From a virus (Duplodnaviria; Heunggongvirae; Uroviricota; Caudoviricetes), in IMG/VR virus record IMGVR_UViG_2925891887_000001: 64,000 nucleotides of DNA. The stretch is one strand, 5' to 3'. The position numbers and the translations under genes are program-made. Each line of letters starts with the position of its first letter. Within the stretch, counting starts at the first letter, position 1. The notes below the pieces were generated by a model, which saw only the letters and a program-made list of their open reading frames with translations, did not search any database and was not told the DNA's origin. Below, piece by piece: positions 15,691 through 28,734 of the stretch.

Positions 15691-15722
15691 CACAATAAAG
15701 CCAATAAGAAAACAACTTGTTT
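15691..15722 (+). promoter_or_regulatory. promoter/operator cassette
   Basis: CACAATAAAGCCAATAAGAAAACAACTTGTTTA. Leader TAGGAAAAACACATG. Confidence 0.5.
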
Positions 15723-18899: not shown

Positions 18900-19279
18900 T
18901 GTTTGGCATTGACGCACAGCGTATAGCCGCTTTTGCAAAAAGCCCTCTTGATAATCCCTTGTCTCGTAGTGAGCAAATGGAGCTGGCAAGGCTTTTTATT
19001 CACATTCAAAAACAGGCAGACGTTTTCAATAACATGCCTAATCAACCTATTCTGGATGGTCACATCCAGATGGTCATTAACAGTCATGAGAAAGGCTGGG
19101 CTGCAATCGTCCCCTGCACAATTACATACAGGTTGGCGAAAGAGGTTCAAGAGTTTCGAAAAGCCAGTGTCGAATCGGAGTCTACCAAAGCCGCAATAAA
19201 CACTCTTATTCGCATGGGGTTCACATGGACCGGTGGAGCCTACTGGCAAGCACCTCACCCCATTTTATCCGGCAATTAG
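18899..19279 (+). CDS. hypothetical protein (126 aa)
   Basis: ATG overlaps the upstream stop (TGATG). Confidence 0.5.
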   Translation: MFGIDAQRIAAFAKSPLDNPLSRSEQMELARLFIHIQKQADVFNNMPNQPILDGHIQMVINSHEKGWAAIVPCTITYRLAKEVQEFRKASVESESTKAAINTLIRMGFTWTGGAYWQAPHPILSGN

Positions 19280-19330
19280 ACGCTACAAATCCTTCGGCAT
19301 GAATAAATAAAGGCCATAAGTTGTGGCCTT

Positions 19331-19390
19331 AAATAAATTGTTTTCTACCTTTTCTTATTTGTGAAAATAACCACAACTAGAAAACAACGG
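19331..19390 (+). promoter_or_regulatory. promoter cassette with upstream and downstream operator elements
   Basis: AAATAAATTGTTTTCT (19331-19346), extended -10 TGTGAAAAT (19360-19368), TAGAAAACAACGG (19378-19390). Paralogous to 22953-23017 and 27992-28028. Confidence 0.55.
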
Positions 19391-19398
19391 AGTTAAGA

Positions 19399-19441
19399 AT
19401 GTCTAGTATTTCCGAAGCTCATATGTTCGCCGCTGGCGCTC
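19399..19441 (+). pseudogene. phage ORF truncated after 14 codons by an IS1 end
   Basis: ATG 19399 follows GGAG. MSSISEAHMFAAGAR runs straight into the IS1 terminal repeat at 19442. Confidence 0.6.
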
Positions 19442-19568
19442 GGTGATGCTGCCAACTTACTGATTTAGTGTATGATGGTGTTTTTGAGGTGCTCCAGTGG
19501 CTTCTGTTTCTATCAGCTGTCCCTCCTGTTCAGCTACTGACGGGGTGGTGCGTAACGGCAAAAGCACC
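19442..19568 (+). mobile_element. IS1 left-end fragment (127 bp: IRL plus first 24 codons of insA)
   Basis: Exact reverse complement of 55086-55212, the end of the complete IS1 in this window. Starts GGTGATGCTGCCAACTTACTGAT. Similarity stops after AAAGCACC. Confidence 0.95.
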
Positions 19569-19577
19569 ACCTTTTTA

Positions 19578-20678
19578 TCACACTGCGCGGAATGCGATTT
19601 CGCCAGGTATTACTTCACCTTGCCAATACATTTGGGCAGCAACGCGATCTGCGAGGTCACGATAAATAGCCGTAAATTCACTATCTGGACGACTAATAAC
19701 GGTTGGTGTTCCGTTATCCAGATCTTCACGAAGAGAGATATGAAGTGGCATTTGGCCTAACAACTGCGTGTTGTATTTCTCGGCCAGTTTCTGTGCGCCA
19801 CCGGTGCCAAAAATTGGCTCGTGATGACCGCAGTTACTGCAAATATGCACACTCATGTTTTCAACGATACCCAGTACCGGCACTTCGACTTTTTCGAACA
19901 TCACAATGCCTTTCTTCGCATCGATCAGCGCGATGTCTTGCGGCGTAGTTACCACAACCGCACCAGTTACAGGAATGTTCTGCGCCAGCGTCAATTGAAT
20001 ATCACCAGTGCCCGGTGGCATATCGAGAACGAGATAGTCCAGATCAGGCCACAGTGTTTCCTGCAACATCTGCATCAGCGCCTTGCTGGCCATCGGTCCA
20101 CGCCACACCATTGCATTGTCGTCGGTGACCAGATAACCAATAGAGTTGGTTGCCAGGCCATGAGACATGATAGGTGCCATGTGAGTACCGTCCGGTGAGG
20201 TTGGACGTTGGTTTTCCGCGCCCAGCATGGTTGGAATTGATGGACCATAGATATCGGCATCCAAAATACCAACTTTCGCACCTTCAGCAGCCAACGCCAG
20301 TGCCAGGTTTACCGCCGTGGAGGATTTACCCACGCCGCCCTTGCCCGAGCTGACGGCGATAATGTTCTTAACGCCATTAATGCCTGGTTGGTTTTTGACG
20401 CGCTTAAGCGTGGCAATGTTGTACGACAGCTTCCAGTCAATAGCCTTTGCGCCAGTGATACGGAGCAGATCACCACTACATTGCTCTTTCAGGTCTTCAA
20501 AAGGCTTATTCCACACGAAAGGCATGATTAGTTCGACATGCAGTGTGTCATCCATCAACGCAACATGGTGTAACGCTTTAAGCGTAGTCAGGTTGTGTTT
20601 CAGGGTTGGGTGCTGAAAATTAGCCAGCGTACCGGCTACCATTGCTCTCAGGGCATCCGGCGATTTGGACTCGCTCAT
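19578..20678 (-). CDS. mrp: Mrp/ApbC Fe-S cluster carrier ATPase (host chromosomal gene)
   Basis: 366 aa. Deviant Walker [10 protein letters not shown] and CSNCGH motif. Nearly collinear with enterobacterial Mrp/ApbC as I recall it. Divergent from metG, as on the chromosome. Confidence 0.9.
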
Positions 20679-20835
20679 CCCGTCTCCTTTATTTTAATTT
20701 GCGCAATTGTCGCCTTGTAGTGTACTCCAGCTACGACATTTAATCATTTATGAGAAATGCTGTTATCACATGGCAGACATAAGGCCATTTTGTTACTATC
20801 AAGCCCCTTTTCACTACAAAGAAGTAATGCCTACT

Positions 20836-22869
20836 ATGACCCAAGTCGCGAAGAAAATTCTGGTGACGTGCGCGCTGCCGTACGCTAACGGCTCAATCCA
20901 CCTCGGCCATATGCTGGAGCACATCCAGGCTGATGTCTGGGTTCGTTACCAGCGAATGCGCGGCCACGAGGTTAATTTCATCTGTGCCGACGATGCCCAC
21001 GGTACGCCGATCATGCTGAAAGCACAGCAGCTTGGTATCACACCGGAGCAGATGATTGGCGAAATGAGTCAGGAACACCAGACTGATTTCGCAGGCTTTA
21101 ACATCAGCTATGACAACTATCACTCGACGCACAGCGAAGAGAACCGTCAGTTGTCTGAGCTTATCTATACTCGCCTGAAAGAGAACGGTTTTATTAAAAA
21201 CCGTACTATCTCTCAGTTGTACGACCCGGAAAAAGGCATGTTCCTGCCGGATCGTTTTGTGAAAGGCACCTGCCCGAAATGTAAATCCCCGGATCAATAC
21301 GGCGATAACTGCGAAGTCTGCGGCGCGACCTACAGCCCGACTGAATTGATCGAGCCGAAATCGGTGGTTTCTGGTGCTACCCCGGTAATGCGTGATTCTG
21401 AACACTTCTTCTTTGATCTGCCCTCTTTCAGCGAAATGTTGCAGGCATGGACCCGCAGCGGTGCGTTGCAGGAGCAGGTGGCAAATAAAATGCAGGAGTG
21501 GTTTGAATCCGGCCTGCAACAGTGGGATATCTCCCGCGACGCGCCATACTTTGGTTTTGAAATTCCGAACGCGCCGGGCAAATATTTCTACGTCTGGCTG
21601 GACGCACCGATTGGCTACATGGGTTCTTTCAAGAATCTGTGCGACAAGCGCGGCGACAGCGTAAGCTTCGATGAATACTGGAAGAAAGACTCCACCGCCG
21701 AGCTGTACCACTTCATCGGTAAAGATATCGTTTACTTCCACAGCCTGTTCTGGCCTGCCATGCTGGAAGGCAGCAACTTCCGCAAGCCGACCAACCTGTT
21801 TGTTCATGGCTATGTGACGGTGAACGGCGCGAAGATGTCCAAGTCTCGCGGCACCTTTATTAAAGCCAGCACCTGGCTGAATCATTTTGACGCTGACAGC
21901 CTGCGTTACTACTACACTGCGAAACTCTCTTCGCGCATTGATGATATCGATCTCAACCTGGAGGATTTCGTTCAGCGCGTGAATGCCGATATCGTGAACA
22001 AAGTGGTTAACCTGGCGTCCCGTAACGCTGGCTTTATCAATAAGCGTTTTGACGGTGTGCTGGCAAGCGAGCTGGCTGACCCGCAGTTGTACAAAACCTT
22101 CACTGATGCCGCTGAAGTGATTGGTGAAGCGTGGGAAAGCCGCGAATTTGGTAAAGCTATCCGTGAAATCATGGCACTGGCTGACCTGGCTAACCGCTAT
22201 GTCGACGAGCAGGCTCCTTGGGTAGTCGCAAAACAGGAAGGTCGCGATGCTGACCTGCAGGCGATTTGCTCAATGGGCATCAACCTGTTCCGCGTGCTGA
22301 TGACTTACCTGAAACCGGTACTGCCGAAACTGACAGAACGTGCGGAAGCATTCCTGAATACGGAACTGACCTGGGATGGCATCCAGCAACCGCTGCTGGG
22401 CCATAAAGTGAATCCGTTCAAAGCACTGTATAACCGTATCGACATGAAACAGGTGGAAGCATTGGTGGAAGCGTCTAAAGAAGAAGTGAAAGCTACTGCC
22501 GCGCCAGTTACTGGCCCGCTGGCAGACGACCCGATTCAGGAAACCATCACCTTTGACGACTTTGCCAAAGTTGACCTGCGCGTGGCACTGATCGAAAACG
22601 CAGAGTTTGTTGAAGGTTCTGACAAACTGCTGCGCCTGACGCTGGATCTCGGCGGTGAAAAACGCAATGTCTTCTCAGGCATCCGTTCTGCTTATCCAGA
22701 CCCACAGGCACTGATTGGTCGTCACACCATTATGGTGGCTAACCTGGCTCCGCGTAAGATGCGCTTCGGCATCTCCGAAGGTATGGTGATGGCTGCTGGC
22801 CCCGGCGGGAAAGATATCTTCCTGTTAAGCCCGGATGCTGGTGCTAAACCTGGCCACCAGGTTAAGTAA
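20836..22869 (+). CDS. metG: methionyl-tRNA synthetase (host chromosomal gene)
   Basis: [25 protein letters not shown] (HLGH), [17 protein letters not shown] zinc knuckle, KMSKS, C-terminal tRNA-binding domain. The listed start at 20707 is an upstream in-frame extension. Confidence 0.95.
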
Positions 22870-22891
22870 TTAAGCAACCTCTGTTCGCAAT

Positions 22892-22916
22892 GCCCGGCAA
22901 CACGCTGGGCATTTTC
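22892..22916 (+). terminator. metG terminator
   Basis: GCCCGGC/GCTGGGC stem (one G-U pair), 5-nt loop, ATTTT tail. Confidence 0.6.
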
Positions 22917-22952
22917 ATATAGACACAATCCCTCCTGATTTACACAAGCCTT

Positions 22953-23017
22953 AAAACAATTTGTTTTCTACCTTTTGTTGATTGAGATAATAAGCCACAT
23001 AAGAAAACAAATTGTTT
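22953..23017 (+). promoter_or_regulatory. promoter cassette with two operator palindromes
   Basis: AAAACAATTTGTTTT (22953-22967, perfect), extended -10 TGAGATAAT (22983-22991), AAACAAATTGTTT (23005-23017). Confidence 0.6.
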
Positions 23018-23030
23018 CGGAGTGGTTGAA

Positions 23031-23330
23031 ATGTTGAACATTACCCAAGCCTACCAGGTGGCATTGATCAGTTCATCTCATACATCAGAGGAAGATGCTC
23101 GCCGATTCATGATCGCAAGCAATGAGCTGGATTGGGTTTCACAAATTGATGGCGGTTGTATTGTCCACGCCGGGTTACAGGATGATGTCTGGAAAGACGA
23201 CTTGCGTCGATATGGTATATCCGAAGGCGCGATTGCTAACATTCAGAAAGTACTTGATGTAGGCTTTGACTCTGTACATTTTGATTGTGGTGCGCCGATC
23301 GTTGAAGGGCTTGAGTGCTGGTGTTGGTAG
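23031..23330 (+). CDS. hypothetical protein (99 aa)
   Basis: ATG 23031 follows GGAGTGG. Confidence 0.5.
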   Translation: MLNITQAYQVALISSSHTSEEDARRFMIASNELDWVSQIDGGCIVHAGLQDDVWKDDLRRYGISEGAIANIQKVLDVGFDSVHFDCGAPIVEGLECWCW

Positions 23331-23461
23331 AGTGTATAAGCGGATCAATGAGTTACGGAAACAGTTAATAATGAGGAGCTTGTAATAAGCTGTATACCCT
23401 AGAAAAGCTAGACTAGGGAATAAAATGACGTGAAACTGGGCGAGACAGTAAATAATTCCGA

Positions 23462-24691
23462 ATGATAATTGAACAAATAACCCCTTGCTCGGAGCTTGGA
23501 ATGACTGATACCGCTTTTTCAAAATCGTTACAAAAAGAAGTCGATCCTGAGCAGTACTTGGCGCTAAAGAATTTAGATGACAGCTCGGTTCATGCTATTG
23601 CCCGTGACGATATCATCTGCCCCATTTGCAAAGTTGGAGGTGGTTCGTTCGTTAGAGCCACTAGGAATGGTGGCTATCACAAGAAGGCGCATTTCAGATT
23701 TACCGGTGAAGATGGTCAAGGCCATCATCCATCATGTGATTTCTATGGAGATAGACTAACATCTGAGGTGAAGCAGCACCTTGTCTCATTCACAAAAGAT
23801 CGAACAAAGTATTCGCAGGTAATACGAAAGCTGGTCTGTGCCGGCATACAGGAAGGGATATTTACTCAAGAAAAAATGTGGCAGATGAGGGAATGGTTCT
23901 TCAATAAGCGAAAGGATTCCACATTTGAAATATGGTTAGAAAGCGAGCATTTAGACTGGCTTTATTATATTAGTGGGTTACGTGATGCATATCTAGCATG
24001 GACAACTCCTGATATTCTACCTTTCGCGCCCATTCAGGTTACTGTGCCTGGTTTTTCTTGGAAGCGTGCGATTGACAAAGAGGTGCTAAGAGTTCACATC
24101 AAGACTCTCCAGCAATTGCGTGAAATTTCAGTCTCACATAGAGACATTGCTGTAATCTTAGAACACATAAACAATAATCGTGACCGCACAATTCTCGATC
24201 CATCGCATTTGGAGGACGAGATAAGTAAGACCTGTAAGCTTACTAGTTTTGTGATGGGCAATTACATTGAGTTTCAGACAAAAACGGTTAGCGACAGAGC
24301 ATACGGGGAAGCTAAGTTTCTGGCATTTGCAGCACTTTTGTTGTTCGTGTCAGATTGGGACCTCAACATTGCTATTGGTAAGTTTTCTAAGATTGCCAGA
24401 GTGAAGGAGGTTGATGACATGCTGGCTGGTAATTTCATTGGTCTTAATCCTTACTTCCGATACGACCTGGCTAATGCAGTGAAGAGATTGCAGGATAACT
24501 GGCCGATTGAATACCAAGAGTTGGAGCATTGGAATGTTGAGAAATCCATGCGTGACGCATATGAAAAGTGGCGTGCGACAGAGCCTGAATTCGCTCCACC
24601 CCTATTGCCAGACTTGTATATTGCCAAACATGAGAAAGAAGTCGCACAAGACGAGCAAGTCAGGCAGTGGATTAAGAACGGGGATGTTTGA
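23462..24691 (+). CDS. hypothetical protein with an N-terminal Cys/His zinc-ribbon-like motif (409 aa)
   Basis: CPICKVGGGSF...HKKAHFRFTGEDGQGHHPSCD. Lower GC than its surroundings. The start is uncertain, with an alternative ATG near 23501 after GGAG. Confidence 0.55.
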   Translation: MIIEQITPCSELGMTDTAFSKSLQKEVDPEQYLALKNLDDSSVHAIARDDIICPICKVGGGSFVRATRNGGYHKKAHFRFTGEDGQGHHPSCDFYGDRLTSEVKQHLVSFTKDRTKYSQVIRKLVCAGIQEGIFTQEKMWQMREWFFNKRKDSTFEIWLESEHLDWLYYISGLRDAYLAWTTPDILPFAPIQVTVPGFSWKRAIDKEVLRVHIKTLQQLREISVSHRDIAVILEHINNNRDRTILDPSHLEDEISKTCKLTSFVMGNYIEFQTKTVSDRAYGEAKFLAFAALLLFVSDWDLNIAIGKFSKIARVKEVDDMLAGNFIGLNPYFRYDLANAVKRLQDNWPIEYQELEHWNVEKSMRDAYEKWRATEPEFAPPLLPDLYIAKHEKEVAQDEQVRQWIKNGDV

Positions 24692-24820
24692 GTGTAATTA
24701 GCTTAATCAATCAGTTGATAATGGCGGTCACAATTTGATTCTTTTCTATAAGAATCCGTTGATCGCCACTACTCTTCTTCCATACCTGCAATCACACCTT
24801 TAAATATCAATAGGTTAACG

Positions 24821-24850
24821 TTGTTTATACCAATAAGAAAACAACTAAAT
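24821..24850 (+). promoter_or_regulatory. promoter cassette (half operator)
   Basis: TTGTTTATACCAATAAGAAAACAACTAAAT. The AAAACAACTAAATAACA part recurs at 25069-25085. Confidence 0.4.
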
Positions 24851-24898
24851 AACAGATCAACGAAACATCAACGCTTTCACCCGATTTGGTCTAAAAAA

Positions 24899-24927
24899 TT
24901 GACGTTTTCACACATCACTTCTTATAC
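24899..24927 (+). promoter_or_regulatory. sigma70-like promoter
   Basis: TTGACG, a 17-nt spacer, then TTATAC. Confidence 0.4.
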
Positions 24928-25673
24928 CCGTAATTCTACGCAGCAGATAGCGCTACAGCGTCCAAATTTCACCACAGACGACTCAACACACTACCAACAA
25001 AAACACACGCTCAAAATCGCTCCCGTTGCGTTACACAACCATATAAACAACTTATTTTCAGGTATAACAAAACAACTAAATAACACACATGCCATTACCC
25101 AAAACAACCAACCTCTTTATGGCAGGCTACCGAAAAGACCCACCTCTTCTCCCCAGGCTACCGGACAACCAACCTAACTTTCACAGGCAATCCGAAAACA
25201 TTCATACGCGCGATACCCACGACACGCCATTACCCAAACAGCGAAGAAACACCAGAATCACTGAAAACCCAACGAAGCCTGTTACCGCAAGGATTCTCTC
25301 AATCCCAAAAGACACGAAACAGAACAATCACGGGAAACGCCATTACCCAATACACGAATAACTACAAAAGCCTTTCACACACTCCAGACAAACAACTCAA
25401 ACACAATAACGAAAGGAATCGCCCACCTGCCATTACTCCATACACGGAGAAGAACAATCACCAAAACGACGAGAACACCCCATAGAAGAACCACCGCAAA
25501 ACGAACGAAACCACATACACCGACAGAGAGAACAACACACCCAATTCACCAACAGAAATAGTCGCCGTATAGAACGTTCTGGAAGGAGTGAGCATTAACG
25601 CCTATAGAGAGGTTGAGACAGATAAAACACAACATGTATAGCGAAGAAGCCAGGTATGTATAAGTGGGGAGGG

Positions 25674-25697
25674 AAGGAGGGGTGTCGCCTCCTTTTT
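25674..25697 (+). terminator. intrinsic terminator
   Basis: AAGGAGG/CCTCCTT stem, 7-nt loop, T5 run. Confidence 0.65.
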
Positions 25698-25760
25698 CGT
25701 ATTTATTCAACTCCTGATTTTATCCCCCGTAACACCCCTACGGTCAGCCTTCGGTCCATA

Positions 25761-25893
25761 CAGGGAAAAGGTTGCATCCCGCTACAGAAACGGCTGGGTT
25801 GCCTTCGGGGAACGGCTGGAGGTTTTCAGGGAAACGGTCGAGTTGCCTGTGTGGATTTCGGGAAAAGGCTCGATGCCGGTTCAGGAACGGTGG
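25761..25893 (+). repeat. direct-repeat (iteron-like) array 1, six copies of the (C)GGGAAA(A/C)GG(C/T)NG type
   Basis: Copies start at 25761, 25785, 25806, 25827, 25859 and 25882, with spacings of 24, 21, 21, 32 and 23 nt. Confidence 0.75.
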
Positions 25894-26204
25894 CGTACCG
25901 GTATAGCGAGAGGGAGAGTTGCGGCTACCCACCTGTAATGTGCGGGAAGAAGAGAGGCGCTCACGTAGGCGGACTTGCTTACCGCTGGATTCCCTCTGAA
26001 TGCCCAGCTACAGCGTAATTGTGCCAGACAGCCAGCGGGTCACAATCGATTTCAGTAGGTTTTTGGGGAGAGGATTACTCTGCCACCAGCCACTTTCGGC
26101 CACTAAATCAGAATAATGTAAAAAGTGCACTCGGTACTGAACCTGAAAACTCACTGCCAAAACCACATTCACCGGAATAAAATCCTTTTTCGCCTGTGCG
26201 TTAT

Positions 26205-26240
26205 TGCGATAATAACACCAACAAGTAAACAACATGTTTA
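26205..26240 (+). promoter_or_regulatory. promoter/operator cassette
   Basis: Extended -10 TGCGATAAT (26205-26213), then TAAACAACATGTTTA (26226-26240). Confidence 0.55.
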
Positions 26241-26271
26241 GACGTTATATAAACGAAGTGAGGATGAAGAG

Positions 26272-26490
26272 ATGATTAAGATGCCTGTGACGGTTGAGGT
26301 GTGGGGCGTGGATTCCCTGGCTGAGTGTCTGGATGCAGTGGGGCCGGAGTTGTACCGCAAGTTGTGGTCGTTCGTCCCGGCAGAAGGGGAACCGCCCAAG
26401 GGGAAGGATATCTGGCACCTGCTGAGTGAAGATGAAAAGCGGGAGCTGGTGGACGCGGTACACAGCGAGTTCCCGGGCGACGAAGATTAA
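26272..26490 (+). CDS. hypothetical protein (72 aa)
   Basis: ORF after GAGGATGAAGAG, followed by a terminator. Confidence 0.5.
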   Translation: MIKMPVTVEVWGVDSLAECLDAVGPELYRKLWSFVPAEGEPPKGKDIWHLLSEDEKRELVDAVHSEFPGDED

Positions 26491-28583: not shown

Positions 28584-28734
28584 TTATTAAGGCCATCAGC
28601 ATTGGTGGCCTTAAATGACCATCTTGTTTCCCGCAGGCTAAAAACACCAACCTCTTACCTCCAGGCAACCGACAAACCCACCTGTTCCCGTCCGGCTACC
28701 GCAACTTTCCACTTTGACGCCTTATTCGTACAAC

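Follow-up and report, generated by a model that had tools for sequence, protein, structure and literature searches.

Complete extra aminoacyl-tRNA synthetases (aaRS) are known from mobile elements, for example the plasmid-borne isoleucyl-tRNA synthetases encoded by mupA and mupB, which confer mupirocin resistance, and the aaRS genes of large phages and viruses. Here we describe a methionyl-tRNA synthetase (MetRS) gene, metG, that lies next to apbC (mrp), the gene for an iron-sulfur (Fe-S) cluster carrier ATPase, on IMG/VR virus record IMGVR_UViG_2925891887_000001 (Caudoviricetes). The window, i.e. the whole stretch of DNA that was analysed, comprises 64,000 nucleotides (nt). Like the systems named above, it provides a complete second aaRS on a mobile element; unlike the mupA/mupB products, this MetRS is 99.3% identical to the host enzyme and is not a divergent, inhibitor-resistant paralogue. 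Our analysis revealed that apbC and metG form a module that is long-established cargo (a 'moron') of the Escherichia/Shigella branch of SSU5-like phage-plasmids, and that a fragment of the insertion sequence IS1 beside it is the scar of a later ~5.6-kb loss of phage accessory genes and not the agent of module capture.

The SSU5-like phage-plasmid Cyrano (pLF82) makes virions and is maintained at ~5.5 copies per chromosome (PMC9928086). In LF82 lysogens its apbC is listed as a moron, ~9-fold over the prophage background (PMC9928086, main text and S1 Table), while metG is transcribed at a low level, below that of apbC, and humD more strongly (PMC9928086). The same study describes that SSU5-like elements also carry GNAT-type (KacT) toxins acting on aminoacyl-tRNAs (PMC9928086). 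In Shigella sonnei, expression of metG from the phage-plasmid pWPMR2 (SSU5 supergroup) gives rise to a drug-tolerant subpopulation predisposed to cephalosporin resistance, according to passages of PMC12452169 that cite Tam et al. 2024; the dosage or tolerance phenotype suggested in an initial annotation of the window, which was made from the sequence alone, has thus been reported for phage-plasmid metG. Elements similar to pWPMR2 have been described from E. coli CC131, CC23 and CC73 (bioRxiv 10.1101/2025.09.12.675607), and the pECOH89 announcement and the phage-plasmid survey make no mention of metG. Our locus resembles pWPMR2 in having an extra metG on an SSU5-like Escherichia/Shigella phage-plasmid, a likeness drawn from passages that describe pWPMR2, and six Shigella plasmids in PLSDB match an apbC query. 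It differs in that it belongs to E. coli and bears, beside the module, a deletion scar with IS1.

The window is part of, and 100% identical to, the SSU5-like phage-plasmid p22AR0322A (NZ_CP195468.1), which is circular, measures 109,442 bp and comes from E. coli isolated from a human. Related elements include the SSU5-like phage-plasmids pECOH89 and NZ_CP141583, among others, and the phages Cyrano, CMS-2020a and PhiR41_1. Both module genes are complete, as the initial annotation had proposed (Table 1). ApbC matches the NCBIfam equivalog NF008669 end to end with 759 bits (cut-off 348), and its translation contains both the P-loop GKGGVGKS and the CxxC cluster-binding motif (CSNCG). MetRS matches NF001100 end to end with 1019 bits (cut-off 587), shows the signatures HLGH at residue 22 and KMSKS at residue 333, and ends in a tRNA-binding domain (TIGR00399, residues 543-677). 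Given its identity to E. coli MetRS and a dN/dS of ~0.01-0.02, the plasmid enzyme is probably active in aminoacylation. It differs from the K-12-type protein by S112T, S319T, V442I, R538K and A554T. Since these five substitutions are conservative, an effect of the module via MetRS dosage or expression appears more plausible than one via changed inhibitor or drug binding.

Table 1. Coordinates of the features described, in positions of the 64,000-nt window.
Feature	Coordinates	Strand	Basis
Early promoter/operator cassette copy with motif AGAAAACAAnnTTGTTT	19331..19390	+	Repeat families D2/D4/D8; pattern search
5' stub of SpoT-like HD-domain hydrolase gene (14 codons + 1 nt, cut by IS1)	19399..19441	+	pECOH89 alignment
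IS1 left end, nt 1-127	19442..19568	+	127/127 identity to IS1 of phage P1
Deletion joint: microhomology GCACC plus right arm and T-tract of humD terminator hairpin	19564..19577	+	Three-way alignment
apbC (mrp), Fe-S cluster carrier ATPase, 366 aa, phage-plasmid allele	19578..20678	-	NF008669 match, uninterrupted open reading frame (ORF)
apbC-metG divergent intergenic region, 157 bp	20679..20835	.	Chromosomal-type divergence; E. coli spacer 131 bp
metG, methionyl-tRNA synthetase, 677 aa, second copy, mosaic allele	20836..22869	+	NF001100 match, uninterrupted ORF
Gene-conversion tract in metG, 614 nt (gene positions 547-1160)	21382..21995	+	Identical to chromosomal metG of E. coli NT1N31
Terminator-like hairpin and T-run 3' of metG	22889..22915	+	RNAfold; hairpin proper 22889-22913
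Next promoter/operator cassette copy, heading conserved gene 23022-23330	22953..23017	+	Repeat families; alignment of relatives

Besides pECOH89, NZ_CP141583 and Cyrano, further E. albertii and E. coli plasmids carry this apbC-metG module without IS1 and with the right flank seen here; such related plasmids and phages number ~190. Nucleotide identity to the relatives (pECOH89, pLF82/Cyrano, pAnCo1/2 and others) is 96.6-98.9% over positions 19564-23100, the intergenic region is 99-100% identical to three of their loci (L001, L002 of pECOH89, and L005), and all eight relatives align through the right flank (22870-23040) with its hairpin, cassette and conserved gene. The pECOH89/Cyrano-type elements also share the identical ApbC protein, WP_000004356.1. 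They differ from the window in their metG conversion tracts and at the left side of the module, where they have humD with its terminator, along with accessory genes amounting to 3.8-5.6 kb, instead of 127 bp of IS1; the humD gene with hairpin terminator that typically neighbours the module is therefore missing here. The genes flanking the module in the window belong to the SSU5-like backbone and have orthologues in SSU5 (92% amino acid identity for a DUF4942 methyltransferase-like protein). SSU5 and a Klebsiella relative have kept these flanking genes (DUF4942, 234-aa, 102-aa and 409-aa ORFs, and in SSU5 also the 126-aa ORF), lack the module and encode other small genes in the slot, including an HD hydrolase. 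The module occupies an accessory slot that is hypervariable and has conserved phage genes on either side. The proposal that it fills a single phage gene slot is true for this deletion derivative only.

An apbC allele with at least 95% identity is encoded on 188 PLSDB plasmids. By name, the 201 matching PLSDB records comprise 189 from Escherichia (E. coli, E. fergusonii and E. albertii among those listed), six from Shigella, five from Klebsiella and one uncultured; 196 of the 201 are classed as non-mobilizable, and the carriers among the records listed are mostly 100-115 kb in size. In 5,426 complete E. coli genomes 219 metG copies are plasmid-borne and 5,423 chromosomal, which puts a plasmid-borne metG in ~4% of these genomes. 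The module is already known: hundreds of records annotate it, and its metG has been the subject of study.

Comparison with chromosomes showed that the block is not recent host DNA. The chromosome of the same strain (NZ_CP195467.1) has its own metG and apbC at 1,839,978-1,843,252 in the usual context yehE-apbC-metG-yehI, confirming that the element carries a second copy, and no IS1 is found near this locus, although one downstream of mrp had been considered. Plasmid and chromosomal metG differ at 109 of 2,034 positions (94.64% identity). The apbC genes are more divergent: the plasmid copy shows 82% nucleotide identity to E. coli apbC (dS 1.3-1.8), 82% to Citrobacter and 80% to Salmonella, and is thus no closer to Escherichia than to the other two genera, while identity between the apbC genes of E. 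coli and Citrobacter is 84%. metG is Escherichia-like (94-96% identity, dS 0.19-0.31). A protein search with clustering at 90% identity grouped the plasmid ApbC allele with chromosomal clusters. The description of the block as host chromosome therefore holds in so far as an ultimately chromosomal derivation is supported by the conserved divergent synteny, which is also that of E. coli, and fails with regard to recency, given 82% identity for apbC and 94.6% for metG. Homology to every chromosome compared extends from 19582 to 22870 only, approximately from stop codon to stop codon, so that the right boundary lies at the metG stop codon and not at 22917-22952 as previously placed. The limits of the module coincide almost exactly with the two stop codons, and it has kept its own divergent promoter region. 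Here, the 47 nt nearest metG, with a TACTAT -10-like box and the 5' untranslated region, show 89-91% identity to Escherichia, and the remainder of the spacer aligns to Citrobacter alone, weakly (~77%).

Beyond the metG stop codon follows a hairpin that folds at -20.1 kcal/mol (RNAfold). It was detected by folding, having been missed by a simple terminator scan, is kept in all module carriers and shows U-G to C-G variation in its stem among relatives. No counterpart was found among the chromosomal loci listed (at least 80), and its sequence shows no relation to the terminators that follow chromosomal metG in E. coli, Escherichia sp. E1V33 and Citrobacter; retention of the chromosomal metG terminator, as initially assumed, is not borne out.

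Two observations on other apbC-metG loci may be added. Further apbC copies with 79-83% nucleotide identity were found on two unrelated large plasmids, a 438-kb plasmid of E. coli (H251) and a 256-kb plasmid of Klebsiella (H252), and a separate 366-aa E. coli ApbC variant (P0074, 81% identical) occurs on nine contigs, which suggests that apbC may have become mobile on more than one occasion. The aligned apbC-metG block of CP170191.1 (L007), labelled as Enterobacter hormaechei B56, is identical to that of E. coli strain 9A and only the flank downstream of apbC differs, so the record looks mislabelled or contaminated.

Plasmid metG is a mosaic. The 614-nt tract listed in Table 1 is identical to the NT1N31 allele, its flanks differ from that allele by 5-10%, the differences are strongly clustered, and none of 200 permutations reached the observed value in a maximum chi-square test. 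Other plasmid metG copies have different E. coli-like tracts. The gene would thus have been overwritten in patches, repeatedly, by homologous recombination with resident chromosomal metG, and apbC may be too diverged to recombine with its chromosomal copy. Two E. coli chromosomal metG alleles (L004 and L092) differ at 42 positions, which are concentrated in the 3' half (gene positions 1300-2000) at up to eight per 100 nt; this could point to exchange running the other way, out of the plasmid into the chromosome.

The module is passed on together with the phage-plasmid, and purifying selection on both genes is strong (dN/dS ~0.02 or less). Among nine plasmid copies of apbC, dS reaches 0.18 and dN 0-0.005, and the protein is identical in seven of the nine; among eight intact plasmid copies of metG, dS reaches 0.29. 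The ORFs are intact in all nine apbC copies and in eight of nine metG copies.

At the left flank the junction described in the initial annotation was recovered in full: a phage ORF is cut after 14 codons at 19442, 127 bp of IS1 follow with 0 mismatches, and phage sequence resumes 9 nt before the apbC stop codon. Related phage-plasmids in which this flank is not interrupted by IS1 do exist and have humD beside apbC. Window positions 19037-19441 are 99.75% identical to positions 1-405 of the pECOH89 locus (L002), in which the intact 213-aa hydrolase gene begins at position 363; its product matches the RelA/SpoT HD region (TIGR00691, E = 1.5e-24). The IS1 fragment comprises the left inverted repeat (19442-19464) and the first 24 codons of insA (start at 19497), and RefSeq annotates it as a partial IS1 transposase. 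A functional IS1 has 768 bp, both terminal inverted repeats and insA/insB; here nt 1-127 alone are present and the other 641 bp are gone.

Alignment of the window with IS1 and with the relatives pECOH89, L001 and L005 revealed how the fragment ends. The sequence GCACC at 19564-19568 corresponds both to IS1 nt 123-127 and to phage sequence at the start of the right arm of the humD terminator hairpin, and the breakpoint is ambiguous within these positions owing to the 5-bp microhomology. All of the eight IS1-free relatives show the humD stop codon, then the hairpin GG(T/C)GGTGCA-nn-TGCACC(A/G)CC-TTTTT and, 9 nt on, the apbC stop codon, with compensatory changes in the stem between relatives. In the window only the right arm of this hairpin is present, the left arm being deleted. 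Similarity to pECOH89 is resumed just downstream of apbC (98.4% over 19564-24700), and 5,595 bp of pECOH89 are missing between 19441 and 19564; the gap relative to NZ_CP141583 is ~3.8 kb. The last deleted gene encodes a HumD-family (UmuD'-like) S24 peptidase (NF051876, 220 bits). Altogether the region lost in the lineage of the window (pECOH89 L002 363-5977) holds eight accessory genes, including those for the HumD-family protein and for the SpoT-like HD hydrolase, which may hydrolyse (p)ppGpp. The identical double junction of phage, 127-bp IS1 and apbC occurs in seven complete E. coli genomes and one further PLSDB plasmid, i.e. in at least eight independent assemblies, from humans, pigs, chicken and giant panda. 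It is therefore not an assembly artefact, and the scar is inherited. It is also rare: of the 219 metG copies on plasmids in the complete E. coli genomes, seven have it.

Insertion of IS1 followed by deletion appears to be the simplest history of this flank. IS1 would have inserted into codon 15 of the SpoT-like hydrolase gene in the sub-lineage of the window, and a deletion from IS1 nt 127 to the humD terminator across GCACC, stopping 9 nt before apbC, would then have removed the 641 bp of IS1 together with ~5.6 kb and the eight accessory genes including humD. In classical IS1 adjacent deletions the whole IS is kept and the deletion begins at its terminus. The window resembles these in that an IS1 end lies exactly at the gene disruption and neighbouring DNA is gone, and differs in that the breakpoint lies inside IS1, at nt 127, at a 5-bp microhomology, which argues for an illegitimate, slippage-type deletion that destroyed the IS. 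Furthermore, the cassette at 19331-19390, which in relatives heads the accessory operon from the HD-hydrolase gene to humD, and a promoter-like site at 19449-19476 (the IS1 insA promoter) may now be read antisense into apbC because the humD terminator has been destroyed.

Taken as a whole, we consider the following history highly probable. A single old capture would have brought the module from an enterobacterial chromosome, not that of E. coli or at least not of a sampled lineage, into the SSU5-like elements, where it became cargo; metG would have been converted in patches; an IS1 insertion and a microhomology deletion would have followed later; and the lysogen would have MetRS and ApbC each encoded a second time, at plasmid copy number. 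Four points weigh against this history. No donor chromosome was found in a protein-anchored scan of GTDB species genomes, the best apbC match among the loci listed (at least 80) being 82-83% (Citrobacter werkmanii, E. coli), so that a single ancient capture is inferred; chromosomes of E. albertii, E. fergusonii and E. marmotae were not among these loci. No complete IS1 at the same site, as expected for the intermediate, was found in complete E. coli genomes or PLSDB. On one E. albertii plasmid (L087, NZ_CP099888.1, 3867-5900) metG is frameshifted, with 27 in-frame stop codons after the shift, next to an intact apbC encoding the invariant protein, and metG is therefore not indispensable to the element. 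Finally, antisense read-through into apbC in the scar lineage is predicted from promoter and terminator anatomy only.

A more far-reaching version, which we put forward tentatively and with some doubt, holds that the module is an ancient xenologous apbC-metG pair in which metG might act as a standing recombination partner of the essential chromosomal metG, so that conversion tracts would pass between chromosomes and the mobile copy and alleles would be shuttled among Escherichia and Shigella hosts. As the ApbC protein is invariant despite a dS of up to 0.18, apbC would be selected at least as strongly as metG, and the benefit would then not be one of simple MetRS dosage. The scar sub-lineage, having lost humD and the SpoT-like hydrolase, would have its apbC exposed to antisense transcription.

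Alternatively, the module might serve the phage itself and not drug tolerance, either by Met-tRNA charging and Fe-S maturation during lytic growth or as a buffer against toxins and defences that target tRNAs or aaRS. Its early-region position amid genes for replication and nucleotide metabolism would fit, as would the presence on these elements of KacT-type toxins that act on aminoacyl-tRNAs (PMC9928086), and a tolerance model based on metG only does not explain why apbC is the more conserved gene. However, apbC and metG have kept chromosomal-type upstream DNA rather than a phage cassette, and apbC is expressed in lysogeny (PMC9928086), which fits a role in lysogenic conversion. We regard a primarily phage-serving role as unlikely; the two roles are not mutually exclusive.

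That the module is a neutral or decaying passenger without selected function might be suggested by the frameshifted metG of the E. albertii plasmid and by the low transcription of metG in LF82 lysogens (PMC9928086). It is nevertheless quite improbable in view of the high synonymous divergence of both genes (dS to 0.18 and 0.29) at a dN of at most 0.005, of the intact ORFs and the ApbC protein shared at 100% identity by seven of nine copies, and of the retention of the module in ~190 plasmids under four species names. Furthermore, the 5.6-kb deletion halted 9 nt before apbC.

The initial annotation had read the block as 3.4 kb of host chromosome that was recently moved by an IS1-associated illegitimate event, with the IS1 fragment as the capture joint. 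IS1 does abut the block 9 nt from the apbC stop codon, and an IS1 is situated ~0.7 kb downstream of metG on some chromosomes of E. coli. Yet many IS1-free relatives share the identical module and right junction and have humD and its terminator where the window has IS1, the genes are only 82% (apbC) and 94.6% (metG) identical to those of the strain's own IS1-free locus, and the scar variant accounts for 7/219 plasmid copies of metG in complete E. coli genomes. This origin is therefore highly improbable. IS-mediated gene capture would be recognised by an IS at the junction of the carriers and a near-identical donor beside an IS; most carriers are without IS1 and the host locus is 5-18% diverged. 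As regards the chromosomal IS1 copies, those of E. coli NT1N31 (L092 4214-4911) and strain 127 (H55) lie inside a DUF4132/WGR gene; they are unrelated to the plasmid scar and could be mistaken for a capture source. An assembly chimera, in which IS1 repeats (a median of 10 matching places per genome) had mis-joined chromosomal and plasmid contigs, is practically out of the question, since the same double junction recurs in at least eight independently assembled complete plasmids, metG differs at 109 positions from the chromosomal copy in the same assembly, and a repeat collapse would not be expected to leave 127 bp of IS1 joined at a microhomology; this reading and that of a chromosome-integrated context were ruled out, as the records are circular ~110-kb plasmids and phage genomes.

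Some features of the surrounding early region deserve mention. The cassettes at 19331 and 22954 show 77% identity over 57 nt, in agreement with the initial annotation of one phage cassette on both sides of the block, and a pattern search for the cassette motif gave three matches compared to 0.12 expected by chance. Orthologues of the gene downstream of the right-hand cassette are present in SSU5 and in an SSU5-like phage of Klebsiella. The cassette family, built on the near-palindrome AGAAAACAAnnTTGTTT, counts 5 to 10 copies between 14974 and 31901 before many early-region genes (e.g. at 15703, 16417, 19378, 22998, 26220, 26597, 27081 and 28748) and looks like the shared site of a phage regulator. 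Further downstream, an ORF-poor stretch of ~1.6 kb (24692-26274) has a strongly skewed composition (25000-25399: GC skew -0.47, AT skew +0.42) and contains three adjacent 30-31-nt repeats at 25101-25197 that recur at 28640-28705. The stretch has no Rfam or tRNA match, in line with tRNA and Rfam scans of the window that gave no matches, and is not called by Tandem Repeats Finder; it could represent iterons, an origin or a non-coding RNA.

The main value of this analysis lies in a correction, as the supposed fresh capture by IS1 of a host gene that is essential turned out to be a cargo module that is widespread and already annotated. In the passages on pWPMR2 cited above, this module is linked to antimicrobial tolerance in epidemic Shigella. 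Possibly new, and incremental, are three observations: apbC is deeply diverged, metG seems to have been converted in patches by host chromosomes, and an IS1-scar lineage lacking humD and the SpoT-like hydrolase is recurrent. These findings are of interest mainly for the study of the evolution of the module and of the share that apbC may have in its phenotype.

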